This document shows, one piece after another, positions 3,939 to 54,128 of a stretch of DNA of 64,000 nucleotides. The stretch is from Patescibacteria group bacterium (GTDB lineage: Bacteria; Patescibacteriota; Microgenomatia; UBA8517): the NCBI GenBank assembly GCA_026416845.1, contig JAOAEL010000002.1:47422-111421 (forward strand), given 5' to 3'. A program made the translations under genes and the position numbers. Position 1 is the stretch's first letter, and each line of letters begins with the position of its first letter. Below the pieces are notes generated by a model, which ran no database searches, had not been told where the DNA came from, and saw only the letters and a program-made list of their open reading frames with translations.

Positions 3939-3959
3939 GCTCAGAAAAAAGAGGTGGAA

Positions 3960-5018: not shown

Positions 5019-5019
5019 A

Positions 5020-6765
5020 TTACTCTTGTGCTACACGCAAAATTTCTTCAACTGTGGTAATCCCTTCTATTACTTTTAAATAACCATCTTGTTTCATAGT
5101 TACCATACCTTCTTCCCGAGCCTGTTTTTCTATTTCTCCGGAACTTGCTCGTTCCAAAATAAGCCTACTAATTTTTTCACTTACTGGCAATACTTCAAAA
5201 ATACCTACTCTTCCATAGTAACCTGTATTTCCACACTCAGAGCAACCAGCACCTTTGTAAAATTTTGATGACATATCTCTCTTCCATAAAGGTCCTAAGA
5301 CGTTCTGCATTTCTTCTAAAACCTTTGGTTCCAAATTTTGCTCAATTTTACAACTTGCATGTATTTTTCTGACAACACGCTGTGCAACAATTGCAGTTAC
5401 TGATGAAGCCAGCAAAAAAGGTTCAGCTTTCATATCAAGAAGTCTTGGCAATGCGCCAGCAGCGTCGTTTGTATGCAAAGTTGCAAACACAAGATGCCCT
5501 GTAAGCGACGCTTGAATTGCCAAGTCCGCAGTTTCTGAATCCCTAATTTCTCCAACCAAAATAATGTTTGGATCTTGTCTTAAAAAAGCTCTTAAACCAG
5601 ATGCAAAAGTTAGGCCAGCCGCTGGATTCACTTGAACCTGATTAACACCCGGAATTTTGTATTCAATTGGATCTTCGAGAGTAACAATATTTACCTTAGG
5701 AGTATTTAATTTTTGAATAATTGAATACAAAGTTGTCGTTTTCCCTGAACCAGTAGGCCCTGTAATTAAAATAATACCATGAGGCTTCAATATTGCTTCT
5801 TGTAAATTCTTTAATGCCAAACCTCTAAATCCCAAATCTGGCAAATCAGGAACGCCACCTGTTTTTTTAAGTATTCTCATAACAATTTTCTCACCAAGGG
5901 CAGTAGGCAATGTAGAAACACGCAAATCTACTTCTTGATTTTCAAATCTAAAATTAAACCTTCCATCTTGCGGAACTCGCTTTTCATCAATTTTCATATC
6001 AGACAATATTTTTATACGAGAAACCAAAGCATCGTGAAGCTCACGAGGAATAGTAAGACTTTCCTGCAATATTCCATCAATCCTATACCTCACTCGTGTC
6101 GAACGCTCTTGAGGTTCAATATGAATATCGGAAGCTCGAGCTTTAATCGAATAACTAAGAATATGCATAACAATTTCGCCAATCTTTTCCTCACGAATCA
6201 CACCAACACGTGTCGAATCAAATGTACGAACTTTTGAATTTGTTCCAATAACATCTTTTAAAGCTTCAGAAACTTCACGGGCCAATGTAGAACTGTAAGA
6301 AGTAGAAATCATTAAATCAATTTTCGTAGGTTCCGCAGCAAAAGGTTTAACTATCATTCCAGTCTTTCGCTCTATAAATTCTATTGCACCAAGATCGAGA
6401 GGATTTGCCATTGCCAAAGAAAACTGTTTTGATGATTTATCAACCGAAATAGGAAAAACTTTAAATCTATTTGCTATTTCCTGTGTAATTAAAGCTAAAG
6501 CTTCAGGAGAAATTGGGATAGAATCAAGATCAACATAAGAAACATTATAAAGTTCTGCTTTAGCCTTGGTAAGAGAACTTTCATCCACAAGATTTTGAGA
6601 TTTAATTATTTCTTCTTGGCTTTTGCCAGTTTGTACTTCCAAAAGTTTTACTTGCTTTGCACGATTTTCATCAAAAACTCCATAACCCAAAAGTATGTCA
6701 ACCAAAGTTCTAGCAGATGAAAATTGAGACAAATTATAATTTTTTGACATGCTTTGCATAAACAA
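5020..6765 (-). CDS. pilB: Type IV pilus assembly ATPase PilB (GspE family)
   Basis: 581 aa. An N-terminal GspE-N-like domain, Walker A GPTGSGKTTT and a CSECGNTGY tetracysteine zinc motif. Confidence 0.85.
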   Translation of the reverse strand: MFMQSMSKNYNLSQFSSARTLVDILLGYGVFDENRAKQVKLLEVQTGKSQEEIIKSQNLVDESSLTKAKAELYNVSYVDLDSIPISPEALALITQEIANRFKVFPISVDKSSKQFSLAMANPLDLGAIEFIERKTGMIVKPFAAEPTKIDLMISTSYSSTLAREVSEALKDVIGTNSKVRTFDSTRVGVIREEKIGEIVMHILSYSIKARASDIHIEPQERSTRVRYRIDGILQESLTIPRELHDALVSRIKILSDMKIDEKRVPQDGRFNFRFENQEVDLRVSTLPTALGEKIVMRILKKTGGVPDLPDLGFRGLALKNLQEAILKPHGIILITGPTGSGKTTTLYSIIQKLNTPKVNIVTLEDPIEYKIPGVNQVQVNPAAGLTFASGLRAFLRQDPNIILVGEIRDSETADLAIQASLTGHLVFATLHTNDAAGALPRLLDMKAEPFLLASSVTAIVAQRVVRKIHASCKIEQNLEPKVLEEMQNVLGPLWKRDMSSKFYKGAGCSECGNTGYYGRVGIFEVLPVSEKISRLILERASSGEIEKQAREEGMVTMKQDGYLKVIEGITTVEEILRVAQE

Positions 6766-22387: not shown

Positions 22388-22455
22388 TTTAGTTTTGAAT
22401 TTAATGATACAAATTTGACATTAAAACTTCCACCTAGTAACATTTCTAGTAGTTT

Positions 22456-22947
22456 ATGCTAGAGACTCCCCATGTAGTAGTAGGGGCCGCACTTGCCGCT
22501 AAAGTCGTAAATCCTTTTCTTGCCATTCCTCTTTCCTTTGCAAGCCATTTTGTGCTTGACACTGTACCTCACTGGAACCCTCACATCTCCACAGAAAAAC
22601 GAAAATTTGGTCACATTACAAAAAAAAGCGTTTTTATAATATCTGCAGATGTTATTCTTGCTCTACTAATTGGAACCGCAATTTCAATCGCAATTTCTTA
22701 TACACAAGATCCGAATCAAGGGATAATTTTTAATTGGAAACAATTTGCAATCTCCATGCTTTGTTGCTTTGCGGCAGTTTTGCCCGATGTGATAGAAGCT
22801 CCATTGTTTTTCACAAAATACAGATCAAAATTTCTTGAAATTTGGCTTAAGTTTCAAAAATCTATCCAAAATGATACAAATTTCTTCTGGGGAATCATCA
22901 CTCAAGTTTTAACTATTTCCGCCGCTTTGTATTGGATATTTGGATAA
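22456..22947 (+). CDS. Hypothetical membrane protein
   Basis: 163 aa with 4 predicted TM helices and no recognisable motif. Confidence 0.45.
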   Translation: MLETPHVVVGAALAAKVVNPFLAIPLSFASHFVLDTVPHWNPHISTEKRKFGHITKKSVFIISADVILALLIGTAISIAISYTQDPNQGIIFNWKQFAISMLCCFAAVLPDVIEAPLFFTKYRSKFLEIWLKFQKSIQNDTNFFWGIITQVLTISAALYWIFG

Positions 22948-22949
22948 CT

Positions 22950-23513
22950 TTACTCTTTTACCCTTTCAACATACTCGCCTGTTCTTGTATCGACTCTTAC
23001 TTTATCTCCTTTTTCCACAAAAAGAGGGACGCGCACGGAAATTCCATTTTCCAAAACTGCAGACTTGTACATATTTGAAGCTGAATTACCCCTGACACCA
23101 GGATCTGTCTCTGCAACTTTTAGAATCACTTTGGGAGGAATATCTACACCCAAAACTTTATCTTCCCAGAGCACAACAGTAACAGTTTCTCCCTCTTTGA
23201 TATAAGGAAGCTCATTTTCCAAAACATCTTTTTGCACTTCCAACTGTTCATAATTTGAAGGATCCATGAACACCACATTTGCACCATCCTGATAAAGGTA
23301 CTGAAGAGTACGTTTAGTTGTTTTTGCTTCTTCAACTTTGACCGAAGAAGAAAAAGTTTTTTCAACAACAGATCCTGAGATTAAATCTCTTGCCAAAACA
23401 CGCACTGTGGCTCCGCCTCTGCCCATTTTTATGAAAGTGTACTTAAGCACTTTGTGCGGTTTGCCATCGTGCAAAAACGCTGTCCCGTTTCTTAAATCAG
23501 AAGCGCTTATCAT
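22950..23513 (-). CDS. efp: Elongation factor P
   Basis: MISASDLRNGTAF...KPHKVL...KMGRGGATVRV aligns to EF-P domain I. 187 aa with a three-domain layout. Confidence 0.9.
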   Translation of the reverse strand: MISASDLRNGTAFLHDGKPHKVLKYTFIKMGRGGATVRVLARDLISGSVVEKTFSSSVKVEEAKTTKRTLQYLYQDGANVVFMDPSNYEQLEVQKDVLENELPYIKEGETVTVVLWEDKVLGVDIPPKVILKVAETDPGVRGNSASNMYKSAVLENGISVRVPLFVEKGDKVRVDTRTGEYVERVKE

Positions 23514-23606
23514 AAAATTTTACCTACCTCAAAGGGTATTTTACTTTAAAAAATCTAAAAATCAAAGCCAGATGCAAAATCCTTGAAATACTTGAATTTT
23601 CAAAAT

Positions 23607-24779
23607 TCACCTGTTGCCCTTTGCCCGATTGTGAGTTTTGCAAAGCATTTGACAATTTTCCATGGTGCTTCCGCCACCTTTGCTCCATGCCGTCACATGA
23701 TCCGCGTCCATTTCCGAAAAATCCCAAATCTTTATTTTGTTTGAATCATTTCCCAGCGTGCAAAGCGGGCAATTAGAAATTCCGTTTGCTTTTGCTTGCT
23801 GAGTTTGTCTTTCATAAACGGTTTTCTTTATAGCATCATCAAATACGCGAACATCAAGAAGGGTAGTGTCTTGCATTCCGCCTAGAATGTACTCAAAAAT
23901 GCCTTTTCTGTTTCTCACATACGGGTCGGCATAAAGTCGGGACACTTCCTTGGAAACTTCTTGTGGATTATAGGAGTTTCCATGATACTCTTCATACATT
24001 CTCCCCCACTCTAACCCGCACATTTCGTCTTTAACATCAATAAAAACCCCTGATACCCAATCGATAACCGTATTAAAGTAAGTTTTAAGCTCATCGATAT
24101 TATCATCATACCTGTGCCTGCTCATATATTCGCTTACATTGCCGCGGCTTACCCAATCTAAAGCAGTGCGCAAAAAATCCTGTCTGTTGACATTGCCTCT
24201 CACATACGCTTTCCATTTATTCACATTAGCATTTTGACTGTTGCTAAATTCCGCTCTCGCCAGAGTTACAAAAGGACCAGAATAAACAGCGTTCAAAAGC
24301 TCCTGCTCGTTAAGCGGCACGCCGGCAATATTTATTGTCTTGAACCATTCTTTTATTTCGCTTTCTGTGCCCTCGCAGATGTAAATGAGAAGTTTGGTAT
24401 CCAAAATTCTTTGTTTTTTGTCAGAGGACATATTATGAAAATATTGCGGATTTCCATGTTCATCAAAAATAGCAAATTTACCGGTAATAAATCGTCCAAG
24501 ACTAGTGATGCGTTGTTGGCCATCCAAAACTTCATACTTATCCTCGGCAACTTTATTAAAATAAATCAAGCCGATTGGGTAACCTTTCAAAACAGACTCG
24601 ACCACCGCCATTTCCTTTTTCCCACCATCCATGCTGGAGTAAATATAATTTCGCTGGTATTCCGGCTGAATTACCAATCTGCCTGACCAACCAAAAAGCC
24701 CCTTGCCTTCAAGCTCGTTATAGACAAAGCCCTCGCAAACTTCTTTGATTGTTATATCTGTGCGAAGTGTGGTGTTCAT
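23607..24779 (-). CDS. DUF262 (ParB-like/GmrS-like) domain protein fused to a C-terminal HNH nuclease
   Basis: N-terminal IQPEYQRNYIY and DGQQRITSL are hallmark DUF262 motifs. The C-terminus carries a CPLC...DHVTAWSKGG...NCQMLCKTHNRAKGN HNH/His-Me finger. Its start overlaps the upstream MTase stop by 4 nt. Confidence 0.75.
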   Translation of the reverse strand: MNTTLRTDITIKEVCEGFVYNELEGKGLFGWSGRLVIQPEYQRNYIYSSMDGGKKEMAVVESVLKGYPIGLIYFNKVAEDKYEVLDGQQRITSLGRFITGKFAIFDEHGNPQYFHNMSSDKKQRILDTKLLIYICEGTESEIKEWFKTINIAGVPLNEQELLNAVYSGPFVTLARAEFSNSQNANVNKWKAYVRGNVNRQDFLRTALDWVSRGNVSEYMSRHRYDDNIDELKTYFNTVIDWVSGVFIDVKDEMCGLEWGRMYEEYHGNSYNPQEVSKEVSRLYADPYVRNRKGIFEYILGGMQDTTLLDVRVFDDAIKKTVYERQTQQAKANGISNCPLCTLGNDSNKIKIWDFSEMDADHVTAWSKGGGSTMENCQMLCKTHNRAKGNR

Positions 24780-25894
24780 AATTTCCTATGCTTTATAAAA
24801 ATTCTTTTAAACAACTCTTTCCCGTTCATAAAAACCCCACGACCATAAATGCCATTTGGATCTTGGTTTACACCACGACTAGATCCCACTATCTCAAACT
24901 GCTCCGGATTGTATTTATCCAAAAAACTAATCGGCACGCCCATTATACCATCATAATCGCTTGGGATAGCCTCTGTGTACGACACCTCTATGGCATCGTA
25001 ATTGTCGTACTTCTGGTAGCACGCGGGATTGTTTTGAACCTTTTTGTTGAACTTTTTGTTTTCTTCCATAGTCATCAGTTTTAGGGGCTGATGTCGCCTG
25101 CCATGGTCAAGGTTGGTGAACCAACAAGAATTCCCTAGCCTTGTATAATTGCCAACATACCCTAATCTGGCAGCTTTTTGTTTGTATTTTTCATCAACTG
25201 GGAATCCTTCAGGAACAGCAAAAACCATATCAACACCATTACCTGTTGCGCCAAGCCATATTTTATTTTGCTTGATAAGGGGAAAAATCTCTTTATAAGT
25301 TATCGCATTCATATTACCGATTATCAAAAACTTTTTGTCGTAATCTATAAGTTGTCTGACATACTCTCTAAAAAGAGAAAACGGCGGATTGGTGACAACA
25401 ATATCTGATTGCTTCAGAAGCTCTATGCATTCCTCGCTTCTGAAATCGCCATCACCTTTTAACGGTTCCCACTCGTTGTGTTTGTTTTCTTTGAGAATTT
25501 TGGCTATGTCTTCCAAATCAAATTGGCCATTTTCATCAACATCGGCAACATCATTGACAATAAATCTATTGGCGGTAACTTTAGGCCTGCCTTTTTGCGG
25601 TGGAAGGGTAGGATCGTCGCCAAATAGGGCAAGCTGAGTATTGGCGACAGGAGATGGTTTATAGCTTGTGGTAATCAACTTTTTAAGCCCAAGTTTTTTA
25701 AAGTTTAAAACAAAGTATTTAAAAAAATTACTTTCAAAGGGATCATCGCAATTGCAGTAAATTACTTTGTCTTTAAAAGCGTCCGGGTTGTATTCAAGAT
25801 AGGCTTCAACCTCCTTTTGGATATCCTGATATTGCGTGTAAAATTCATCGTTTTTGGCTTTTTTTGCTTTGGTCAGATTCGTGTTTGGCATCAA
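24776..25894 (-). CDS. N6-adenine DNA methyltransferase (gamma-class; EcoRI-methylase-like family by motif recollection)
   Basis: Motif IV VVTNPPFS. N-terminal KNDEFYTQ...VIYCNCDDPFESNFFKYF block resembles the EcoRI-methylase-type family. 372 aa. Confidence 0.7.
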   Translation of the reverse strand: MMPNTNLTKAKKAKNDEFYTQYQDIQKEVEAYLEYNPDAFKDKVIYCNCDDPFESNFFKYFVLNFKKLGLKKLITTSYKPSPVANTQLALFGDDPTLPPQKGRPKVTANRFIVNDVADVDENGQFDLEDIAKILKENKHNEWEPLKGDGDFRSEECIELLKQSDIVVTNPPFSLFREYVRQLIDYDKKFLIIGNMNAITYKEIFPLIKQNKIWLGATGNGVDMVFAVPEGFPVDEKYKQKAARLGYVGNYTRLGNSCWFTNLDHGRRHQPLKLMTMEENKKFNKKVQNNPACYQKYDNYDAIEVSYTEAIPSDYDGIMGVPISFLDKYNPEQFEIVGSSRGVNQDPNGIYGRGVFMNGKELFKRIFIKHRKL

Positions 25895-25942
25895 ACAAAA
25901 ATTTAGGCATAGAAAAAATTAGGCATAAAAAAATTTTTCAAG

Positions 25943-26027
25943 TGCCCAGGGCGAGATTTGAACTCGCACAAGATGTTACTCTTACAGGTTTTTGAGACCT
26001 GCGTGTCTACCGTTCCACCACCTGGGC
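25943..26027 (-). tRNA. tRNA-Leu (anticodon CAA), type II with long variable arm
   Basis: Reverse complement GCCCAGGTGGTGGAACGGTAGACACGCAGGTCTCAAAAACCTG-(long V arm)-GCGAGTTCAAATCTCGCCCTGGGCA. 7-bp acceptor stem, anticodon loop CUCAAAA, T-arm GTTCAAATC. CCA is not encoded. Confidence 0.8.
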
Positions 26028-26094
26028 ATAAGCAAAAATCAATAAGCTTAACTTTCGTATTTTAACATTTGAGAAAAAACTTATAAACAAATTA

Positions 26095-27411
26095 TTAAGC
26101 TCTTGCCGTCTCTCTGCTATAAAATTTCACCTGATCACCTTTGAAAAATAGTTTAATGGAAGCAAGAGGCCCGTTTCTATGTTTGGCAACATCAAGCGCT
26201 ATGTTATTCATATTTTCGTCGTCTTCGCGATACAAAAACATCACCACATCAGCATCTTGCTCTATGCTCCCACTCTCTCTAAGATCCGCAAGTTGAGGTT
26301 TTTTCTCCCCCCTGTGTTCCACAGCTCTTGAGAGTTGGGAAAGCGCAAGAACAGGAATTTTAAGTTCCCTTGCCAAATTTTTAAGCCCCTGTGAGATTTC
26401 GCCTACTTCTTGCACACGATTTTCTAAATTCCTGCTTCTGGCAAGTTGCAAATAATCAACTATCAAAAGCTCAAGCCCCTGTTCCACCTGAAGCCTGCGA
26501 GCGCGACTTCGCATCTCAAGTATGGATAATGCCGGAGTATCGTCTATAAAAATAGGAGCGTCATACAATATTCCCATTGCTTCGGATAATTTTGCAAATT
26601 CGTCTTCTGTGAGCCTGCCGGTTTTTAATTTCCAAGAGTCTATCTCCGCATGGGCAACCAAAAGCCTGTCATTAAGCTCTTCCTTGCTCATTTCCAAAGA
26701 AAAAAAACCAACAGGCTTTTTGTTTTTTACTGCCACATAAGAAGCTATATTAAGGGCAAGGGCAGTCTTCCCTACACCCGGTCTTGCCGCAAGAATTATG
26801 AGATTAGAAGGTTGCAATCCTGATAATGTTTTATCCAAATCAGCAAAGCCCGTTGCCACCCCGCGCATTTCTCCGGGATTTTTATAAAGCTCATCCAATC
26901 TGTCAAAACTAACAGTCAAAACATTTTTTATATGCTCAAAACCCTTGGAAGAACTTTGCGTGGATAATGAATAAACTTCAGACTCAGCTTTGTCCAAAAG
27001 CTCAGAAACGCTCATGCTGTCATCTGTGGACATCTCCACAAGCTTGCTTGCGGTTTTTAGAAGAGATCTTTTTATGGCAAAATCCCGAACAATCCTGCCA
27101 TAATGCTCAACGTGAGCGGTTGTGGGAACCTTGTTTGATAAGTCAGTCAAAAATGTTAAACCACCTATCGATTTTAGAAGCTTCTTTTTTTTAAGCCGCT
27201 CAGAAATTGTCAAAACATCAATTGGAATTCTTTCGTCAAAAAGCTCAAGCGCCACAAGGTAAACTTCTTTAAGCCTGCCGTCATAAAAATCATCAGGAGA
27301 CAAAAACTCCGCCACCGCAACAATTGCGTCTTTATCCAAAAGCAAGGACCCAACAACAGACTCCTCTGCTTCCTGAGAATGCGGAGGTATTCGTGGTGAT
27401 TTGTCAGCCAT
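26095..27411 (-). CDS. dnaB: Replicative DNA helicase DnaB
   Basis: N-terminal DnaB domain (PHSQEAEESVVGSLL), Walker A ARPGVGKTALALN and RecA-like C-terminal motifs. 438 aa. Confidence 0.9.
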   Translation of the reverse strand: MADKSPRIPPHSQEAEESVVGSLLLDKDAIVAVAEFLSPDDFYDGRLKEVYLVALELFDERIPIDVLTISERLKKKKLLKSIGGLTFLTDLSNKVPTTAHVEHYGRIVRDFAIKRSLLKTASKLVEMSTDDSMSVSELLDKAESEVYSLSTQSSSKGFEHIKNVLTVSFDRLDELYKNPGEMRGVATGFADLDKTLSGLQPSNLIILAARPGVGKTALALNIASYVAVKNKKPVGFFSLEMSKEELNDRLLVAHAEIDSWKLKTGRLTEDEFAKLSEAMGILYDAPIFIDDTPALSILEMRSRARRLQVEQGLELLIVDYLQLARSRNLENRVQEVGEISQGLKNLARELKIPVLALSQLSRAVEHRGEKKPQLADLRESGSIEQDADVVMFLYREDDENMNNIALDVAKHRNGPLASIKLFFKGDQVKFYSRETARA

Positions 27412-40411: not shown

Positions 40412-40999
40412 TCACAATTTTAGACTTGAATAATCCGCATCAAAAGGAACAGTTCTACGCCAGTTCCTATGTAATAAAGATTCAACTAAAGCCTTCAAAG
40501 TAGATTTGGGCAGAATTCTAGCTGTTGATCTGTCTTTAAAAGCTGAATTAAGACACTCTGCAAAAGCTCTACAAAAATCAACTACGTGCCAACTTGCCAA
40601 AGAAGCAATAGCGTACCTTGAAGCTATCGTGGCTAAACGCTCCCATCGATTGGCATCTTTTGAAGCTCGCAATGATTGATTATAGGAATTTCTTAGATTG
40701 TTAAACGATTCTTCATCTTTGCTCAATCGTGCCCTTAAAAGGTCCCTTTGAAACTCAAGCAGTGTTTTTACAGTCATTTCGTTAGCAATTCTCACAGCTT
40801 CATCCAACATTTCAACCGCGGTATTAATCAAAGACGGATCTCCAACTAATGCCGATAATGTTACTAAGTAATCAGCCATCCAATTAATCATTTCAATACG
40901 AAATTCATACGGATTGCCTTTGGTATCTTGTCTAATAGCAATTGACATTTCTCTAACTTGGCAATTTTCCGTACAATAAAGAAAACCCTTTTCTTGCAT
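40412..40999 (-). CDS. Hypothetical protein (slightly higher GC than surroundings)
   Basis: 195 aa, mainly helical, no recognised motif. A possible 38-50 aa small ORF lies just upstream at about 41050..41215 on the same strand. Confidence 0.4.
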   Translation of the reverse strand: MQEKGFLYCTENCQVREMSIAIRQDTKGNPYEFRIEMINWMADYLVTLSALVGDPSLINTAVEMLDEAVRIANEMTVKTLLEFQRDLLRARLSKDEESFNNLRNSYNQSLRASKDANRWERLATIASRYAIASLASWHVVDFCRAFAECLNSAFKDRSTARILPKSTLKALVESLLHRNWRRTVPFDADYSSLKL

Positions 41000-41404: not shown

Positions 41405-41968
41405 TTGATCCAAAATACAAAAACCATGGAAGAAAAATTTTCTCAATATTCTGATTTTATTCCTGAATTGTGGGCAGAAAAAAAGGGGATAAAAATTGCG
41501 CGATTAATTTTGGATTCTCAACTAATAGCAAGACAAGCGATCAGAAATATAAGAAGTATTGACTGCAAAAAAATGAGAAGTATCGATCAAAAAGAAGATG
41601 GAAATGAAATAAACATAGTTGACGTATATGCAAAAATTTATCTAGAAGCTCTTACTCTTCAGTTGTTGTCTGATGAATCAATATTTAATCATGTTGCCCT
41701 ATCTTTTTTCGAACAAACAATTAAAGAAATAAAAGAGAACCCCAATTCAGAGTTTGGAAACAAACCAGATCAAGAAATTGCTAGATCAATCATTAACAAT
41801 TTGCTAGAAGAAATTAAAAGTGGTAAAAATTCAGAACAATTGATGACAATCAGTGGTTACGCTACTTTAAATAATTTCACTTTTGGACATGATACACAAG
41901 AAAGTGTGATCAAAAACATTCTCCATATGCATTACATAGCGCAAACACAAAATTCAGATAGTAATTAA
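41405..41968 (+). CDS. Hypothetical protein
   Basis: 187 aa, helical, no motif. Confidence 0.4.
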   Translation: MIQNTKTMEEKFSQYSDFIPELWAEKKGIKIARLILDSQLIARQAIRNIRSIDCKKMRSIDQKEDGNEINIVDVYAKIYLEALTLQLLSDESIFNHVALSFFEQTIKEIKENPNSEFGNKPDQEIARSIINNLLEEIKSGKNSEQLMTISGYATLNNFTFGHDTQESVIKNILHMHYIAQTQNSDSN

Positions 41969-42261
41969 TAGGTATGCAAAACCTTAATCTTCGATCCTTA
42001 GAGTCTGCAAACAAAAGTAAGTAACATTAATAAAATTTTTGTTCATCAAAATTAAAATTTTGTGGTTTAAGTCAAAAAAATTGTGCTTAAGCTGGATTTT
42101 ATCTTGCAAATTAGGTTAAAAATTTTAATTGTTTAAAAAAAATTTAAGCAAAACGGTATTAATTAAAAAACGTAGCGTAAAAAAATTTAAATTTGCCATA
42201 AAAACCAACTTCATATAAAGTTAAATTGATAAAAAAACGTTTTTTCCAAAAAAGGTAAAAC

Positions 42262-45200
42262 ATGTCCAAAAAAACAAAAATCATAATATTTATTCACACT
42301 TTATTAATAACCCTAATCTTAGTTATTCTTTCAAATTTGATAATCAACAAGTTAACCAAAGCATCTCCTCCCGGCAATACACAATACAGACGCATGATTC
42401 ATATAGATAACACTAACAACAATAACGCTCTCACAGATTATCAAGTCATGGTAACTATAGACACAGCTTCTTTAATCTCGCAAAGCAAAATGAAATCAAA
42501 CTGCGATGATATTAGATTTCTGGATTCCAACAACAGTACCAATTTAAACTACTGGATAGAAACTGGCAATTCTAACTCCTGTAATTCAACAAACACAAGA
42601 ATTTGGGTAAAAATTCCAAACATAAATGCCAATTCAAGAAAAACAATCTACATGTATTATGGCGATAATTCTTTAGCGGCAGGATCATCTGGAGAAGATA
42701 CTTTCATATTCTTTGACGAGTTTAACAGTTTCAACGCAACAAAATGGTCATCAACAAATGGCACAAATGGCTACTCTATCTCAGGAGGAGCTATCACTAT
42801 AAATTCTGGAGCAGTTTATACAAATAGTACAGTTGGCAATCAACCAGGTCAGATGGTTGAAGCTCAAATGCGATGGCTAAACACTGGTTTGCAATCAGGT
42901 CTTATGATAGCTAACCAACAAAACACACAGTCAGGGAATAGTTCGGGTGCAGCTCTCTCTTATATCCTAAGGGGGGCTTCTCCAAATTTTGACATTTATT
43001 TATACGGATTAGCCGCAAGTGGAAATAGTGGCGGTTATGATATCGCAAATGTAGCAAATATACTCAATATCACCTTCAATCAAAATACTAAATACATTGT
43101 TGGCACTAGTCTGGATTCAAGCAACTTAAGGTTCTTTATAAACAGATCAAATCCTCAAACATCAACTTACAGCACATGGAGTTCAAGCCAAAACTATTAT
43201 CTTTGGCTTGGTTATTTCATGGGAGGAAATTCAGGAACAACTGACATCTCTGACATAGAAGTTGATTGGGTTTTGGTAAGAAAATATACCTCTTCCGCGC
43301 CAAGTGTGAGTGTCGGAGCGGAAACAATATCAAACCCCAAATATTCGCTTCGTTTCTACGGAAATGGAGTCAATGCTCCAGATCTGGACAGAGTGAAAAT
43401 TGCTCTTGACAATCCCGAAAGACCTGTGGATGTGGCGCAAAATTTCACCTTGGAATTCTGGATGAAAGCAAGCAACATCAATAACCAGAGTCCTACTTGC
43501 TCAGGCGGCGCAAACACAAATTGGATAAATGGAAACATAATCTTTGACAAGGATATTTACGGAAATGGAGATTATGGAGACTGGGGAATATCTCTTTATG
43601 GTGGAGTAATTTCGTTTGGGGTTTCTGTTGGATCAAATGACAGAACCATTTGCGGCGCAACCAATGTGGCAAACAACCAATGGCATCATATTGCAGTAAC
43701 AAGAAATTCCTCCACAGGAGAAATGCGAATATTCGTTAATGGCAACCAAGACGCTACAGGAACTGGACCAACAGGAAATATAAGTTACAGAAACAACAGA
43801 ACCACGAGTTACCCAAACAGCGATCCTTACTTGGTAATTGGCGCAGAGAAACATGACGCTGGTTCAAATTATCCTTCCTATAATGGATATGTGGACGAAG
43901 TTCGCATCTCAAATATTGTAAGATACACATCAAACTTTACTCCACTTACTCAACCTTTTACACCTGATAGTAACACACTTGCTCTGTACCATTTTGATGA
44001 AGGTCAAGGCACAACAGCTCATGACACTTCTGGCACGCAAACTGGGCCAAGTGATGGGATTTTAAATGTTGGAGGCAATCCCACCGGTCCAATTTGGTCT
44101 ACCGATCAACCTTTTGCCAATACAACACCAACATCGACAAATACTCCAACACCAGCGCCAACTCCAACCCCAACTCCTAGTCCCACCCTAACCGCTACTC
44201 CTACTCCAACTGCTACTCTTACACCAAGTCCTACTACTACTCCAACTCCTTACCCTAACAATTACTATCATGTCCTTCTATCAGGGCAGAGTTTAGCAAC
44301 AGGTTATGATGGTGCTCCACCTCTTAGTACTAGTCAACCCTACAACAACGTAAAATTAAACCAATCCCAAAACGCCTTTGTGCCACTTATAGAAAACGAA
44401 GATGTAAATGACAACTTGCCAAATACGCCAGTAGAAACACCGGCAAGTGCGCTCGGTAACACAATTACCGCCTTAACTGGAGGAACAAGAAGAATGGTTG
44501 TAACAAGAAACGCAATACCGGGAGCTACTTACGCGCAATTAAAGAAAAATGGCACTACAAGCGCTTATGCTGATGGACTTACTCAAATCACAAACGCAAA
44601 ATCTATCGCAAATGGTTTAGGTTACGGATTAATTGTCCCAGCTGTTGCTTTGATACATGGACCAGCAAATTTTGCGGACGGACTTGCCTACCAATCCATG
44701 CTTAATGAATGGCAGTCTGATTACAACACCGACATAAAACAAATCACAGGACAAACCGGCAATATACCAATGTTTATAGACCAAAGTAGCAATTTCACAG
44801 CTTACAATTACTCAAGCTCAGATCTAGTCCAAGCCCAATATCTAGCCGCAAAACAAAACCCAAACATATATATGATTGGACCTAGATACCATTTTACCTA
44901 CGCAAGCGATAATATTCATATTCCAAATACTGGTTACAGATGGCTTGGAGAATATTATGGCAAAGCAATTAGCAGAGTTCTAAACGGACAAACAATCACA
45001 GCATTAACACCTGCAGAAGTAGTTAGAAGAAATAATGTAATCACAACGCGGTTTAATGTCCCCCATCCCCCACTTGTATTTGACACTATAAATGTTCTGC
45101 CACGAGCTAACTATGGATTTGAATACACAGACAATGGCACTCCACCTTCTATTAGTTCCATTCAATTACTTGGGAACGATTCAGTAAGAATCACACTCTC

Positions 45201-46812
45201 AAGCACACCCACTGGTTCAAATCAAAGACTACGATACGCTTTTACCGGCACAGCAGGAGCAAGGCCTGGAGCTGATTCCACAGGATCAGCAAGAGGAAAT
45301 CTAAGAGATAGCGACAACACTATATCGCTTTATGGTAATAATCTTTACAACTGGTCGGTGCACTTTGAAGAATCAATCACACTTGATGAAACAGCTCCAA
45401 ATTTTGTCACAAATCCGGTATTCTCCCCCAATACTTCCGGATTCACCGCCACATGGACAACAAACGAACCATCATCAAGCCAGATACTTTATGGTTTAAC
45501 AAATACCAATCAAAGCAATACTGAAACAAATATCTCTCCACGAGTAACAAATCATACTTCATCAGTATCATCTCTTCTCCCATGCGCCACATACACATTA
45601 AGAGCAAGGTCGGAAGATTTGGCAGGAAACTCGGCATTAGGACAAGAAACACAATCAACAACCACAGGCTGTTTGGGAAATTCTCTAGTAGAAAACTACA
45701 CCACAGCAATCGCTCCAACTAATTTCAATACTAATCTTGAACTAAAACAAAACAATTTGGGTATTCAAATATCAATCCCTGCTAACTACAATTTGACACA
45801 AGCTCAATTCCAAATCCATAAACTAAATAAGAACTCGGTTATAAACGCAACCGGATCACCAACGGAAAAAAGTCCACTTAACTACTTTTACGATCTAAAA
45901 GCATTAACAAGTGAAAGCACAGAAATAACAAATTTCAGCTCTAACATAAATGTTACAATAACATATCAAGACGGCGATCTTGGCAATATAGAAAGTGAAA
46001 GTTCTCTTTCTATTTACAGGTGGACAGGTAGCGCTTGGAGCAATTTACAAAATTGCAATGTTAATCAACAAACAAACACAGTCACTTGCAGTACCAACCA
46101 GTTTTCTGTGTTTGGACTTTTTGGCAAAACAAAAAACGAATCTTCACAACAATCAAACTCAAGTCAAACAGTATCATCATCAAACTCCGCCACAATTTGC
46201 ACAAGTGAAAGACCATCAGGCAACCCAGTTTGGCTTTTTGGCGCCTTGCAATCAGGCAGAAATTCACTGCTTTTGCACTTTGTTCCCAACAGCAAACCTT
46301 TCAATAAAATGGCCTTGGTGTACGGCACAGAACCAAACAAGTACACATTTGGAACCCATTTCAATGCAAATGAATCAACTTATACATTTAATGTAGGTAA
46401 TCTAAACCCACGATTAAATTACTATTTCAGATTGCTACCTATAAATAACTGCATGCCCGGAGAGTGGTCCAATGAATTGAGAGCAAGATTAACTCAAAAC
46501 TTTGCGACAACCAAACCAGATCAAGTTCCTGAATCTTCTTCCAAAAACGATTCTTTCCCACAATACTCACAAGATACTGACAAATCAAAGTCCAATCCTC
46601 CTTCTAATAGGTTCACAGACACAGAAGATGATGAAAGCATAACAACAGTTACACCAACCACAAAAACTCACAGTTTAAATGAAAATAATCAACTCTCCCA
46701 AGAAAAGAAAGACTTTCAAAACAGAAATTACATAATAGCAATAGGAGTAGTATTGTTAGCTTTCATTATAGGTCTGACCTGGGCAATTAAAACATTCTTA
46801 TCAAAAAAATAA
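42262..46812 (+). CDS. Giant multidomain cell-surface protein (DUF2341 / LamG lectin-like / PT linker / SASA-SGNH esterase-like / FN3-like repeats / C-terminal TM anchor)
   Basis: N-terminal signal anchor. DUF2341-like block ([20 protein letters not shown]...RIWVKIPNI...IYMYYGDNS). LamG/ConA-like block ([22 protein letters not shown]). The (PT)n linker [14 protein letters not shown]. Sialate-O-acetylesterase-like [10 protein letters not shown]. Two FN3-like modules. S/T/P-rich stalk and a C-terminal hydrophobic anchor [19 protein letters not shown]. Confidence 0.8.
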
Positions 46813-50340: not shown

Positions 50341-51942
50341 CTAATTTTTCAGACTTTGCAAGATCTCCTCTATCTCTGAAACACTTAAAGCTCTCCAAGG
50401 CGAACTGTCAGGATCAAATTTGGATGCTTCTGGACTATCCCCTTGTGTCCACCATTTAGCCTGATAAGCCTCGCCTTCATACATAACTCTATCCAATTTA
50501 TTATAAATTTTTTTACCATCCCACTCAGGATAGTAGTTTTCAGGCAGTTTAGGCAATGAAACTGGCTTTTCTCCTGGCAATACAGGACCTAACAATTCCC
50601 AAGGCGTTTGCCACGAATGCAAGACTGGATTATCAGGTAAATCGCCTTTTGTCCACCACTTTGCTTTATAAACATTTTTTCGCCAAACAACTTTTGAACC
50701 CTCCAGATAAACAGCCTTCTCGTTCCAGATAGGATAAGGGCTTTCATTAGGATTGTCTATTATATCTTCGACCGTCTCGCTTAAAGTGACTTGGGCTAAA
50801 TTGCTTTCAAGTTTGTTTGCAAAACCATCGCTTAATATTTTGGAAAATTCATGTTTTTCCTGCTTAATGCCGCTACATGAGTCAGAAACAATACGCAAAT
50901 TTACATAATTATCGCCACAAGCAGAATCTCTATTGGCAGACCAAATAGAAACTCTTGAAACACCTTTTTCCTTGGCAAAATGGTTTATTGATTTTGCGTC
51001 ATCAAGTGTGAATATCTCTTTTGGGATATCATTTTGACCAATCATTACTGTCAAACCAATTTTTTTCCATAAAGTATTACTCCCTAAAGTAATTCCAAAC
51101 TTGTTATAAATAACTCCTAATTGTCTATGAGCTTCGATAACAGATCTTTTTGCCGCAGAAAACATTGATTCATGCTCCGACTTCGAATTGCCAAAATTCA
51201 TAGTCATGATATTTACCCCAGTCACATCAACATTGTTTTTTAGCATTATCTCTAAAGCAAAAGCGCCTTCTTCTGTTAAACCAAAAGTAGCTACCGGCAA
51301 TGTAAGCCAAACAGCAAGCATTTTATTATCTTCTTGTCTTTGCAACTTGCTTACCACTCTTGCCCGTCTTTCCAAAGATTCTTGATCCAAAAGCGCGTTT
51401 CCTTCTAAATCAAAATCCAATGTATTAACTTGATATCTAGAAATCACTTTTTTGTAAGCTGATAAAAGTTTTTCTTCATCTTTGCAAACAAGAGCCAGTT
51501 CTTCATTAAGCAGTCCGCCAAATGACACAGATATCTCTCCGCCTAATTGCCTAAATCTTGCAATTCTTCTGTCCAAGTCCAACTCATTATTGGCATCATC
51601 TAAAGTGTAATAAGTTCCCCAAGTTGGCTCGCAAGGATCATTTTTGGAAGCAACAATAAAGGATAAGATAACATTTTTGTGATTACTTGCCGCATCCACT
51701 TTTTCAAAACCATACAAAGGCTTGGCGGTTACATCAACATATGCTCCATACCATGGCTTCAAATCATAATATTTGTTAATGCCTTCATTTGCCTTTATAT
51801 ACATATAAACCGCATAACAAGATAAAATTACTAATGCAAAAAGGATAAACAACCTTCGAATTGATAGCTTTTTTTTAGTATTATTATTGCTCATAATTTC
51901 TTTAATTAAATTGGCGTGCCATGAAATAAAATCTTTCTCCAA
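50341..51942 (-). CDS. GH18 chitinase-like protein with two C-terminal CBM5/12 chitin-binding domains
   Basis: N-terminal TM. GH18-like DxDxE catalytic motif (NTLDFDLEG). Two C-terminal repeats of the CBM5/12 pattern (YKAKWWTKGDLPDNP and YQAKWWTQGDSPEAS). Confidence 0.65.
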   Translation of the reverse strand: MEKDFISWHANLIKEIMSNNNTKKKLSIRRLFILFALVILSCYAVYMYIKANEGINKYYDLKPWYGAYVDVTAKPLYGFEKVDAASNHKNVILSFIVASKNDPCEPTWGTYYTLDDANNELDLDRRIARFRQLGGEISVSFGGLLNEELALVCKDEEKLLSAYKKVISRYQVNTLDFDLEGNALLDQESLERRARVVSKLQRQEDNKMLAVWLTLPVATFGLTEEGAFALEIMLKNNVDVTGVNIMTMNFGNSKSEHESMFSAAKRSVIEAHRQLGVIYNKFGITLGSNTLWKKIGLTVMIGQNDIPKEIFTLDDAKSINHFAKEKGVSRVSIWSANRDSACGDNYVNLRIVSDSCSGIKQEKHEFSKILSDGFANKLESNLAQVTLSETVEDIIDNPNESPYPIWNEKAVYLEGSKVVWRKNVYKAKWWTKGDLPDNPVLHSWQTPWELLGPVLPGEKPVSLPKLPENYYPEWDGKKIYNKLDRVMYEGEAYQAKWWTQGDSPEASKFDPDSSPWRALSVSEIEEILQSLKN

Positions 51943-54128
51943 TCTTTCTCTATCATGTTATTGCTTATAGACAGCTCTTGCGCTTTAGCTTTTTTATCAA
52001 CAACATCGATATATAACCAATCCATAATTCCAAACCAAATGTCTGACACTAAGTTGCGAATGCCAATATAAGAAACTATTGCCCAAGAAGCGGTAAAAGC
52101 GTTAAAGGTGGCAAAAATAGCATTTCCCCAATTTTCTAATAAAATGTTCCGCCAAGCTGTAAAAATTGAAAAAGCAACAATCAATATAGGTACTACCAAG
52201 TAGATTATTCCCGCTCTTGTGCGATTTTTTACCTTTGGCGTCCTTGCAAAAGGGATTTTCTTGCCGGTTATTGCTTGTTCTATGGACTTCAAAACTCCAG
52301 CTAAATTCACAGGAAGCATAATTAAATTAAATCCATATATCCTAAAAATATCGCTGTACCTATAACCACAATACTTTAAATCGCTAGCCATTGAGATGAA
52401 ATAAGGCATGGCCGCAAGCAAAACCAAAGGACTTAGAAGCCTTCCATCGTAAGGATAAACAAGCAAAAACATAAGCCCAAATGTTGCCCAAGCAATAGAA
52501 GCCATATAATTTACCCTAAGTAAAAATTCTGTCCAAGTAATTGGATCATTCTTTATTTTCCTAATGCGCATTTGCTTTAACAACTTTGCAAGTATAATTA
52601 GTCCGCCATTTGCCCATCTTCTTCTTTGAACAATTAGCGATCCGAAATCAGGAGGTGTTGCACTGTAGCTTAACCTTTCCGGATAATTCATTAATGTCCA
52701 CCCATGCATCCCCAAATCAATGCTGGATTCCGTATCCTCTATTACTGTTCTATCTTGAATATATCTTTTGACTTCCACCCCATTTATATTTTCTATTTCA
52801 ACAATATCTTCGATGGCTTTTTTCCTGATAATCGCATTCGCTCCCACCCAAAAGGTAGCATTGTAATAACTTTTACCTTGATGAAGAATATGTTGGATAT
52901 CTGTTGTAGCTCCAGCAAGATATTCTATTCTTGTATAAGCGCCACGGAACGAGGAATACGGAGTTTGAGCGACAGCAACTCTTTGATTTTCTGGTTGTTG
53001 CATGTAGTAAACAAGTCTTAAGCAATATTCCCTTAGAAGTATAGAGTCCGCATCCAAACTCAAAATAAAATCACTATCCGGTATTACAATAGTGCTTTTG
53101 CCTACATTTTTCGTTGGTATAAGCTCAAGCCCTCTGTCTGTAACCACTTCTTTGTAAGCTTTGCCCATAAGTCCTATATAACTGTTTAAATTCATTGCCT
53201 TGTTCGGCTCGTGGGATAATGAAGCGTACTTTTTGCGTTCAAATACATCTATTTCAGATTTAAAAGTCCAAACAAGCCTATTGTAAAGACTTAAAACTAT
53301 TCGCTTATCAATTTTTGACTTCTCAGAGATAGCATTGTCCAAAGCTTTTTTTACTTCCAAAAAATCTTTTGCCAATTCCAAAATGACTTGATTTACAAAA
53401 AAATCATCAACATGATCTTCTATAACTTCTCTTTTGGCAAAATTTTTCAACCAACTTGCCGCCCACAAATAACAATTAGACAACTTATTTAATTCAGAAA
53501 AATTAGCGGTCTTAGATTCTTTATAACTTTTTAAGAACTCAGACTTTGATTTCCGCATCTTTTTAAAAGGCGCGGAAAACAAATCTCTAATATCGTTTTT
53601 TATATTCCTTGCCCGATTAAGTCTCTCTATTTCTTCCTGTGAGGTTGGATTAGGTTTGTCATCAAGCAGTAAAACCACCCTCAGGTTTGGGTACTCCTGC
53701 AAGAAAGCGGAGATTAAAGTTTTTCTAATAACCGAATATTCCTCATTATAAGAAGGAACCAAAACAGTGATTGAAGGTTTGTATTTTGAAAAATATTTAT
53801 CCAGCGTAAGCCTTGAAACTCTTTTGTGAGCGCTAAAACGCTTCAAGGCTCCATATCTTGCCACAAGATACATCAAAGAAGAGAAAATAAGCATTGAAAC
53901 CACAAAAGAATATCCAATAGCCTCCATAGCGAAACTGTAATTTTGGGGACCATCCATAAGTTGTCTTACTATCACAGACAAAATATAAAAAAACCAAAGA
54001 ATTACAGTTAAAACAATTGCAAGTTTGCTTAAAGCAATTTTTCTAAGCGATGGAACCTCATGAAGAATGCTAAGAGGTATAGTAGACTTTTCAGTACCCC
54101 ATTGACGTTTGCGCTTGGTTGTAATCAT
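51906..54128 (-). CDS. Processive family-2 glycosyltransferase, chitin-synthase-like (QRRRW motif)
   Basis: Membrane-embedded GT2 with DD (VLLLDDKPN), DxD (SLDADS), TED and QRRRWANG motifs. TM helices at both ends. 740 aa. Overlaps the downstream GH18 gene by 37 nt. Confidence 0.75.
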   Translation of the reverse strand: MITTKRKRQWGTEKSTIPLSILHEVPSLRKIALSKLAIVLTVILWFFYILSVIVRQLMDGPQNYSFAMEAIGYSFVVSMLIFSSLMYLVARYGALKRFSAHKRVSRLTLDKYFSKYKPSITVLVPSYNEEYSVIRKTLISAFLQEYPNLRVVLLLDDKPNPTSQEEIERLNRARNIKNDIRDLFSAPFKKMRKSKSEFLKSYKESKTANFSELNKLSNCYLWAASWLKNFAKREVIEDHVDDFFVNQVILELAKDFLEVKKALDNAISEKSKIDKRIVLSLYNRLVWTFKSEIDVFERKKYASLSHEPNKAMNLNSYIGLMGKAYKEVVTDRGLELIPTKNVGKSTIVIPDSDFILSLDADSILLREYCLRLVYYMQQPENQRVAVAQTPYSSFRGAYTRIEYLAGATTDIQHILHQGKSYYNATFWVGANAIIRKKAIEDIVEIENINGVEVKRYIQDRTVIEDTESSIDLGMHGWTLMNYPERLSYSATPPDFGSLIVQRRRWANGGLIILAKLLKQMRIRKIKNDPITWTEFLLRVNYMASIAWATFGLMFLLVYPYDGRLLSPLVLLAAMPYFISMASDLKYCGYRYSDIFRIYGFNLIMLPVNLAGVLKSIEQAITGKKIPFARTPKVKNRTRAGIIYLVVPILIVAFSIFTAWRNILLENWGNAIFATFNAFTASWAIVSYIGIRNLVSDIWFGIMDWLYIDVVDKKAKAQELSISNNMIEKDWRKILFHGTPI

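Follow-up and report, generated by a model that had tools for sequence, protein, structure and literature searches.

A 1516-codon open reading frame (ORF) of a Patescibacteria group bacterium encodes a modular cell-surface protein whose middle part is predicted to be a SASA-type SGNH esterase fused to a β-sandwich, a module also carried by bacteriophage tail fibres and by surface proteins of many other bacteria. The DNA analysed, here called the window, is a stretch of 64,000 nucleotides (contig JAOAEL010000002.1 of assembly GCA_026416845.1, positions 47,422 to 111,421 of the forward strand), and all nucleotide coordinates refer to it unless another locus is named. On balance, we consider it probable that the protein is anchored at its C-terminus, that its distal lectin-like modules bind an extracellular polysaccharide and that its esterase removes O-acetyl groups from that polysaccharide.

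The single domains of the protein are of known kinds, and a near-identical deposited protein has already been named after one of them, DUF2341. What this analysis adds is the hidden esterase, the module family common to cells and phages, the domain order DUF2341-LamG-esterase-FN3-transmembrane (TM) helix and a variant of the esterase's block III that reads HGP. Our literature search found no paper tying Patescibacteria to SGNH or SASA surface esterases.

Results

The gene and its homologs

The ORF, at 42262..46812 (+) in the ORF list and its translation, starts with ATG at 42262 and ends with TAA at 46810-46812. At the base composition of the window (34.8% G+C), the chance of 1516 stop-free codons is about 1e-47. 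It is the longest ORF of the window and covers 7.1% of it, in agreement with the original prediction made from the letters alone, which had called it the single largest gene at about 7%; the runner-up encodes the 866-aa GyrA. Three homologs span the full length of the protein, namely P0001 (95% identity), deposited as 'DUF2341 domain-containing protein [Patescibacteria group bacterium]', and the metagenome-derived P0002 (75%) and P0003 (49%). In a scan of species-representative genomes, a near-identical copy of the gene was found on a contig of the Patescibacteria metagenome-assembled genome (MAG) SKYG105.

Asparagine, serine and threonine make up 33% of the protein, which is nevertheless not a generic low-complexity repeat. 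Its ten cysteines can be arranged in five plausible pairs, each within a single domain or between adjacent domains and none in the esterase, an arrangement that fits an extracytoplasmic protein. The ORF is real and is a genuine cell-surface protein gene of a member of the Patescibacteria, or Candidate Phyla Radiation (CPR).

A SASA-type esterase fold hidden from direct profile searches

The fold of the middle segment was recognised by structure prediction, after sequence searches had given nothing; profiles built from the single sequence and from 6 sequences likewise retrieved nothing useful from the PDB. A first AlphaFold2 (AF2) model from 6 sequences reached a predicted local distance difference test (pLDDT) score of 64.5 and was replaced by a model from 26 diverse members of the family (m4bd24edced44; pLDDT 94.8, predicted TM-score 0.93). 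The latter consists of an α/β domain (aa 668-907) and one C-terminal β-sandwich (aa 915-1041), with no insertion, and its α/β domain has the α/β/α arrangement with a five-stranded parallel sheet that is typical of SGNH enzymes, as also found by Foldseek. The best match in the PDB covered the whole module and was the tailspike of cyanopodophage Pan3 (9vyh; E=1.6e-24, TM-score 0.80 over 442 columns), followed by XAC1771 of family CE20 (2e-11), the dog and guinea-pig sialic acid esterases SIAE (5e-10) and 1zmb (8e-10, root-mean-square deviation (rmsd) 2.8 Å). Further matches included 2apj, NanS and the CE20 enzyme PpCE20_II; the SASA-type matches had a probability of 1.00 and core rmsd values of 2.8-3.8 Å.

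Membership of the SASA group is also reached through homologs. The equivalent segment of P0005 aligns to positions 6-224 of the 226 in the Pfam SASA profile with 22.4 bits against a threshold of 24.8, and SASA was matched by 20 of 26 relatives with an E-value no higher than 0.1, the lowest being 4.3e-12. Among the closest homologs, roughly one in two has a precomputed match to PF03629, and some bear the NCBI name 'sialate O-acetylesterase'. The model thus confirms a SASA-type SGNH esterase fold for aa 667-910, hidden from direct Pfam searches; the original prediction, which had proposed a SASA-like esterase from a ten-residue motif alone, was right, and the motif lies at aa 672-681. The word 'sialate' is not to be taken literally, as the family name comes from its founding members and nothing indicates sialic acid as the substrate of this protein.

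Characterised SASA enzymes (PF03629; CE6-type enzymes, NanS 3pt5, At4g34215 2apj, CAC0529 1zmb and SIAE 8f9o) share with the module the SGNH fold, the GQS and the DxxH motifs (Foldseek E 5e-6 to 8e-10), whereas the query has only 11-15% identity to them, reads HGPAN instead of (H)QGE, carries the extra β-sandwich and forms part of a 1516-aa surface protein. The CE20 enzyme XacXaeA (XAC1771, PDB 7kmm) has in common with it an SGNH/SASA-like core plus β-sandwich (E=2e-11, TM-score 0.61 over about 405 columns, 13-14% identity). XacXaeA is an O-acetyl-specific esterase with two iso-structural β-sandwiches, one N-terminal and one C-terminal, and an inserted X448 domain (PMC8245568). The query module, with its single C-terminal sandwich and no X448, departs from this CE20 plan, and its gene has no context comparable to the xyloglucan-utilisation locus that encodes XacXaeA.

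Active-site residues and the block III variant

Block I of the query (G675-Q676-S677, 44284-44292) is invariant in 32 of 32 aligned sequences, and its Q-S pair is kept in 251 of 252 family domains; the residue after the serine is leucine in the query instead of the usual asparagine of GQSN. Block III reads H799-G800-P801-A802-N803 (44656-44670), with H799-G800 again invariant (32/32), and a D840-Q-S-S-N844 loop lies at 44779-44793. In block V (D883-N-I-H886, 44908-44919) the histidine was found in 31 of the 32 sequences, and 230 of the 252 family domains possess the D...H pair, D883 being predominant. The β-sandwich (aa 911-1041) carries invariant RYA...GN.RD.D...W..F motifs.

SASA enzymes have an inverted oxyanion hole in which the block I glutamine is positioned by a block III (H)QGE network, and substitutions there abolish activity (PMC9487903). 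The glutamate of block III is present, as HGE, in 230 of the 252 family domains and is replaced by proline (E801P) in all 11 members of the query clade. The complete pattern of QS, HGE and DH occurs in 210 of 252 domains, whereas the DUF2341-linked query clade has QS, HGP and DH in 10 of 11, the exception being P0122, which reads DY (His886 to Tyr). E801P co-varies with M842S and S844N, close by the invariant Gln841, and the query has Asn803 where 30 of 32 sequences carry Asp. Since the defining feature of SASA block III is absent, we did not file the module as a plain SASA member. In comparisons with the three orthologs, the esterase α/β domain is the most conserved region of the protein (100, 93 and 66% identity) and the stalk at aa 1413-1487 the least (88, 16 and 22%). 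Because this domain is so well conserved and all but one of the 11 clade members retain the Gln, Ser, Asp and His residues, the active site of the clade appears remodelled and probably still active. The HGP/DQSSN variant is, from these alignments, newly recognised as a departure from the SASA definition.

Nine other domains of the 252 form a small group of their own with glycine in place of the block III glutamate (DGG in 8, QGG in 1). With this group and the His886 to Tyr change in P0122, block III and the triad are not uniformly fixed across the esterase family.

The same module in phage receptor-binding proteins

The query module matched PHROG 4201, annotated 'tail fiber protein', with E=2.6e-92 and 311.6 bits over positions 270-674 of 676. 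Positions 1-269 of that profile, the virion-attachment or shaft part, are unmatched by the query protein, and the N- and C-terminal thirds of the protein have no PHROG match. A tblastn search detected the module in 76 phage records, nearly complete (about 97% of its length) and with 30-32% identity. The records are mainly those of Klebsiella, Acinetobacter, Serratia and Vibrio phages, and the genes concerned are annotated as tail fibre or hypothetical. The family profile matched the Pan3 tail spike sequence with E=4e-22, β-sandwich motifs included, and three predicted viral structures in BFVD matched with TM-scores of 0.84-0.89. The same Acinetobacter phage tail fibres have been described as carrying C-terminal SGNH/SASA domains (PMC11058221).

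The same esterase and β-sandwich module of about 375 aa is therefore present in fibres of PHROG 4201, Pan3 9vyh, the Acinetobacter phages SH-Ab 15497, fEg-Aba01, DMU1 and PD-6A3 and the Vibrio phage VvAW1. Phage and query modules have in common the GQS, DxxH and RYA...RG..RD sandwich motifs and differ in HGE for the phage type versus HGP for the query. Virion-attached phage fibres carry the module as their C-terminal tip, whereas the query has it internally, flanked by LamG/DUF2341 and FN3 domains, in a membrane-anchored protein. Tail fibres of the PHROG 4201 type are presumably trimeric.

Several phage esterases offer a functional analogy. Aristophanes gp41, G7C gp63.1, the PP99 tail spike and the Vi-capsule esterases of ViI and Vi06 remove O-acetyl groups without depolymerising the polysaccharide (PMC8471582, PMC13123978). 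Among SGNH receptor-binding proteins in general, which need not be of the same subfamily as the query module, Aristophanes gp41 O-deacetylates the K26 capsule (PMC8471582) and Klebsiella prophage SGNH fibres hydrolyse p-nitrophenyl acetate (PMC13123978). ViI, Vi06 and PP99 were among the BFVD matches, at E=2e-10 to 6e-5 and TM-scores of 0.37-0.49, far weaker than the PHROG 4201 group.

A recent transfer from phage to CPR was considered and rejected, as a scan of IMG/VR by two peptide patterns gave a single locus, at 29% identity, and the G+C content at third codon positions (GC3) of the gene equals that of its surroundings. With these two results and the roughly 30% identity to phage copies, the kinship of the cell and phage modules is, on sequence comparison, old and not recent.

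A large family in cellular surface proteins

In an exhaustive profile search, the module was found in 5,123 cluster representatives with E-values up to 1e-3, of which 1,666 reached 1e-30 or better; the proteins range from stand-alone forms of about 365-440 aa to more than 2,000 aa. Judged by these profile matches, the esterase and β-sandwich module is a large unnamed family common to phage receptor-binding and bacterial surface proteins, and one that Pfam SASA captures only in patches. It occurs in Patescibacteria (including Saccharibacteria and Nomurabacteria), Gammaproteobacteria, Verrucomicrobiota, Myxococcota, Acidobacteriota, Chloroflexota, Armatimonadota, Actinomycetota and Bacillota. 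In cellular members, an FN3 domain like that of the query typically comes next after the esterase, and a domain of the type found at aa 1133-1296 often comes after that. The modules on its N-terminal side vary (DUF2341/LamG, FN3, IG_AIR9, FIVAR or FG-GAP), and so do the envelope anchors at the C-terminus (TM helix, PG_binding_1 or LysM); variable binding modules combined with C-terminal envelope anchors are the signature of a surface-displayed enzyme.

Many of the Myxococcota members (P0289, P0339, P0374 and others) have an N-terminal Stig1-type cysteine-rich domain (PF04885). NCBI names these proteins 'MXAN_6577-like cysteine-rich protein', which gives no hint of their esterase.

Domain organisation of the protein

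The features of the protein are listed in Table 1. The complete architecture was found in only a few metagenomic proteins, namely the query and P0001-P0003; P0004-P0006, P0121 and P0125 have variants related to it.

Table 1. Features of the 1516-aa protein with their window coordinates.
Feature	Coordinates	Strand	Basis
Whole gene, 1516-aa modular surface protein	42262..46812	+	ORF, full-length homologs
Basic N-terminus and hydrophobic segment, aa 1-36	42262..42369	+	Hydropathy (Kyte-Doolittle value >1.6 over aa 3-34)
DUF2341, aa 80-164	42499..42753	+	Pfam PF10102
Conserved domain following DUF2341, aa 165-358	42754..43335	+	17 homologous copies
LamG/ConA-like jelly roll, aa 359-620 (Pfam core aa 387-553)	43336..44121	+	Laminin_G_3
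Pro/Thr-rich linker, aa 621-666	44122..44259	+	Read directly from sequence
Predicted SASA-type SGNH esterase α/β domain, aa 667-910	44260..44991	+	AF2 model, Foldseek, motifs
Esterase-fused β-sandwich, aa 911-1041	44992..45384	+	Model secondary structure, conservation
FN3-type domain a (FN3a), Pur_ac_phosph_N-like, aa 1042-1132	45385..45657	+	Pfam matches of homologs
Conserved Cys domain of about 160 aa, aa 1133-1296	45658..46149	+	24 homologous copies
FN3-type domain b (FN3b), aa 1319-1412	46216..46497	+	Pfam matches of homologs
S/T/D/E/K/N-rich stalk, probably disordered, aa 1413-1487	46498..46722	+	Composition
C-terminal TM helix, aa ~1489-1510, and basic tail KTFLSKK	46723..46809	+	Hydropathy

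The N-terminal hydrophobic stretch is predicted to act in Sec export, either as a signal peptide, perhaps cleaved after LTKA, or as a signal anchor; canonical signal peptides are present at the equivalent position in P0124, P0125 and P0133. At the other end, the hydropathy of the helix peaks at 2.77, and a C-terminal TM helix with basic tail is also found in P0121, P0125, P0166 and P0261. The sorting motifs LPxT[GAS], NPxTG, LAxTG and PEP are absent from the protein, and the sorting-signal models of NCBIfam gave no match to it. A reading of the C-terminus as a sortase substrate was therefore rejected, a plain TM anchor being the simplest interpretation.

The DUF2341 domain matched PF10102 with E=2.9e-25 and 89 bits (cut-off 23.4) over profile positions 1-83 of 84. 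The conserved unit begins at about aa 37, however, and aa 37-355 are repeated two to four times in P0004, P0083, P0084 and P0104, so that the true repeat unit is about 320 aa, some four times the Pfam domain. Its second part (aa 165-358), which always directly follows DUF2341, has an invariant ...YLWLGYF.G...G....D..VDWV.VR pattern and falls outside the Pfam DUF2341 model and all other models. For this segment no Pfam match was obtained, directly or via homologs, profile searches gave no PDB match, and hhalign against the LamG profile returned a probability of 0.7%. The sole hint of a fold is a sub-threshold match to the ConA-like 3keto-disac_hyd (E=0.005) at the equivalent position of P0104; a precomputed PF06439 match in P0105 was rejected as a clue since it lies elsewhere in that protein.

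DUF2341 has been linked to pilus-tip adhesins (PMC4858521), and many very large Patescibacteria proteins contain FhaB and/or DUF2341, for which a role in adhesion or host interaction was proposed (PMC11809585). As in those giant proteins and in the DUF2341 proteins of type IV pilus loci, DUF2341 in the query stands near the N-terminus, presumably the distal end, of a large secreted protein; unlike them, the query combines just one DUF2341 unit with an enzymatic module and a TM anchor of its own, and is encoded outside a pilus locus.

The LamG module matched Laminin_G_3 (PF13385) with E=1.8e-16 and 61.1 bits (cut-off 27.6), with Laminin_G_2 and Laminin_G_1 also above their cut-offs, and its profile retrieved neurexin and laminin LG domains from the PDB (E=2e-13 to 1e-5). 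It carries a conserved tail of about 65 aa (ALYHFDEG...GPxWSxDxPF). Together with this tail (43336-44121), it shows 50-62% identity to counterparts in about 100 proteins of other phyla (Roseiflexus, Caldilineales, Bipolaricaulota and others), where its partners are wholly different: PQQ β-propellers, PF07995 glucose/sorbosone dehydrogenase, PF03537 glycoside hydrolase-like domains, peptidase M23, SpoIID and subtilase. This conservation across phyla is unusually high and suggests a mobile module with a constrained ligand.

The two FN3-type domains are supported mainly through homologs. The FN3a equivalent in P0003 (aa 1045-1123) matched Pur_ac_phosph_N above the cut-off (E=3e-9, 37.7 bits), and a domain of this type, of which 33 homologous copies were collected, follows the esterase in P0125, P0128, P0131, P0133, P0137, P0166 and P0171. 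FN3b of the query itself gave a match to fn3 (E=3.7e-4, 21.1 bits) below the 25-bit cut-off, which homologous segments exceed in P0003 (6.5e-11, 42.7 bits) and P0125 (3.1e-8, 34.2 bits). Between the two lies a domain (aa 1133-1296) in which Cys1137 and the pair Cys1265/Cys1276 are invariant or near-invariant and which ends in ...FS.FGLFG. All of its homologous copies, in at least 24 proteins, stand downstream of esterase-FN3; no Pfam match, including via homologs, and no PDB match by profile search was obtained, and we regard it as a candidate undescribed domain family.

Most of this organisation had been anticipated in the original prediction. Its DUF2341 and LamG domains pass the Pfam cut-offs, the WHHIAVT...FVNGN motif that it quoted lies at aa 474-495 within the LamG match, its PT stalk corresponds to Pro/Thr-rich runs at aa 628-642 and aa 654-663, its FN3-like modules are supported by the matches of homologous segments, and the membrane anchor that it placed at the C-terminus is visible in the hydropathy profile. 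The linker containing the Pro/Thr-rich runs differs in length among orthologs (gaps of 18, 16 and 4 residues). Features that the prediction did not contain are the N-terminal hydrophobic segment (aa 5-30), the domains at aa 165-358 and aa 1133-1296 and the ten cysteines.

Genomic surroundings

The gene lies in ordinary chromosome, with YchF, DHODH, amine oxidase, gyrase, DnaB, HisRS and pyruvate kinase genes in its neighbourhood. The upstream spacer (41969-42261, about 290 bp) is very AT-rich with long A/T runs, and the downstream gene is convergent; promoter and terminator scans of the gene gave nothing above shuffled expectation. Two ORFs just upstream, at 40412-40999 (-; 195 aa) and 41405-41968 (+; 187 aa), have no Pfam match.

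At 50341-54128 (-), two genes overlap by 37 nt: one encodes a 740-aa Glyco_trans_2_3 protein, a family 2 glycosyltransferase (GT2), and its 3' end runs into the gene for a 533-aa protein that has two CBM5/12 modules. The CBM5/12 gene and the GT2 gene upstream of it on the same strand probably form an operon. A Glyco_trans_2_3 GT2 gene is also present about 4 kb from the giant homolog gene in L002, the locus of P0003, which may be coincidence or a weak link to polysaccharide synthesis.

A PilB-type ATPase (T2SSE and MshEN) is encoded at 5020-6765 (-), about 36 kb from the gene, with two unannotated ORFs downstream on the same strand; the region 2733-6765 (-) is probably a type IV pilus cluster. 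In L001, the locus of P0004, positions 22405-26369 encode two T2SSE proteins, a T2SSF protein and a weak N_methyl pilin, 6-10 kb downstream of the P0004 gene.

Discussion

The reading that we favour would work as follows. The protein would be exported by Sec and held in the membrane by its C-terminal helix. With the anchor at this end, the FN3 and spacer domains would lie near the membrane, the esterase midway and the LamG and DUF2341 modules at the far end, the order outward being disordered S/T/acidic stalk, FN3b, cysteine-containing spacer domain, FN3a, esterase with β-sandwich, Pro/Thr linker, LamG and DUF2341 tip. The lectin-like distal modules would grip a polysaccharide outside the cell and so bring the esterase onto it. 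In the esterase, Ser677 would act as the nucleophile, His886 and Asp883 would be the other members of the triad and Gln676 would form part of a SASA-type oxyanion hole, and O-acetyl groups would be stripped while the chain is left uncut. By analogy, the most likely substrate would be an acetylated cell-surface polysaccharide of another cell, either a host or a partner, because phage fibre and tailspike esterases built on the same module deacetylate capsules and O-antigens.

Several observations weigh against this reading. The middle segment of the query has no match in Pfam or NCBIfam even at E<=10, SASA (PF03629) included, and the query clade has HGP(A)(N/D) in the place of (H)QGE. The LamG and DUF2341 modules are putative sugar binders, and LamG folds bind proteins too. 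Many free-living bacteria (Myxococcota, Acidobacteriota, Gammaproteobacteria and others) have the esterase module, so that it is not a signature of episymbiosis and its presence does not by itself imply a host-directed role. Lastly, the loci of P0004 (L001) and P0003 (L002) share no neighbours with the window; this synteny check, which the original prediction had proposed, revealed no conserved neighbourhood pointing to a host-interaction system. In the absence of common neighbours no operon-level argument can be made, and the neighbourhood does not decide between the readings.

The suggestions of the original prediction concerning function stand in part. Kinship to phage receptor-binding proteins favours its view of the protein as a candidate for attachment to host cells or glycans, whereas the wide distribution of the module in free-living phyla and the neighbourhood do not. 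Its proposal that acetylated surface glycans are recognised and edited is reasonable and is strengthened by the same kinship, but it remains an inference, the block III glutamate is missing and synteny lends it nothing.

The esterase may instead serve nutrition, in that a surface enzyme of the CE6 or CE20 manner, with LamG and DUF2341 acting like carbohydrate-binding modules, would deacetylate environmental polysaccharides or oligosaccharides (acetylated xylan, mannan, xyloglucan, chitin-derived material or exopolysaccharide) for glycosidases or uptake. The structural likeness to XAC1771/CE20, 1zmb and PpCE20_II is in keeping with this, as are the O-acetyl specificity and appended β-sandwiches of XacXaeA (PMC8245568), the abundance of the family in free-living degraders (Myxococcota and Acidobacteriota) and the CBM5/12 and GT2 genes 3.5-7 kb downstream. 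However, no glycoside hydrolase, transporter or polysaccharide-utilisation gene flanks the gene here or in L001 and L002, and identity to the CE enzymes is only 10-15%, against E=1e-92 to the phage receptor-binding proteins. Patescibacteria have few secreted catabolic enzymes. About 15 predicted extracellular proteins per MAG are reported (PMC11495043). Taken together, we find nutrient scavenging possible but rather unlikely. Far less likely is a self-directed role in envelope maintenance, where O-acetyl groups would be removed in cis, in the manner of Ape, from the cell's own peptidoglycan, secondary wall polymers or S-layer glycans. The protein is indeed membrane-anchored, relatives carry the wall-binding PG_binding_1 and LysM domains, and structures of a peptidoglycan O-acetylesterase (4k3u) and O-acetyltransferase (PatB) are among the weaker Foldseek matches. 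Yet a stalk of about 470 residues and the Pro/Thr linker would hold the esterase and the lectin modules at a great distance from the membrane, the likeness to Ape and PatB is of a generic SGNH kind (E>1e-3) and far exceeded by SASA and phage modules, and the wall-binding domains of the relatives sit at the anchoring end, where they are better read as anchors.

Other explanations concern the module itself. If the change from HGE to HGP had abolished turnover, the SASA module would only bind acetylated glycans and the protein would be a multivalent lectin or adhesin. The fixation of E801P in all 11 clade members against glutamate in most of the family, the loss of activity on substitution of the Gln/(H)QGE network (PMC9487903), Asn803 in the query and the His886 to Tyr change in P0122 are what such a pseudo-esterase would show. 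Its catalytic Gln676, Ser677, Asp883 and His886 would then hardly be expected to persist in 10 of 11 members despite divergence to about 59% identity, nor the catalytic domain to be the most conserved part of the protein; the covariation of E801P, M842S and S844N beside Gln841 looks like remodelling and not decay, and SGNH enzymes with non-canonical oxyanion holes or triads exist (PMC9487903; PDB 9h4u, 'diluted triad'). We therefore consider a pseudo-esterase adhesin unlikely. That the gene is a prophage tail-fibre gene or remnant misread as a cellular surface protein, as the strong match to PHROG 4201 and phage tail fibres might suggest, is effectively refuted: the match to the PHROG profile is confined to its distal 400 positions and the virion-attachment part is absent, signal peptide, TM anchor, DUF2341, LamG and FN3 are present, the gene stands among housekeeping genes (YchF, DHODH, amine oxidase, gyrase and DnaB) with no phage context, GC3 is that of the surroundings, and the two-pattern scan of IMG/VR found no close relative, its one locus being 29% identical.

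Conclusions

How members of the Patescibacteria recognise and hold their hosts is largely unknown, and few secreted proteins are encoded in their genomes. The combination of lectin-type modules with an enzyme module that phages demonstrably use for reading and editing the acetylation of capsules and O-antigens makes this protein a concrete and clonable candidate for host recognition. A bolder version, tentative and, taken as a whole, doubtful, is that the Patescibacteria cell uses a phage-tip esterase module, set on a long stalk beneath the lectin-like modules, to recognise and de-O-acetylate a host polysaccharide for episymbiotic attachment, with HGP/DQSSN as an undescribed oxyanion-hole solution; if true, cells would have an equivalent of the way in which phages adsorb by deacetylation. 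Should the esterase prove inactive, or act on generic plant-type substrates, the protein would be an ordinary modular surface carbohydrate esterase. The analysis also delineates a family of more than 5,000 cluster representatives and highlights two domains without a family (aa 165-358 and aa 1133-1296), and the clade without the block III glutamate tests how rigid the SASA oxyanion-hole design is.

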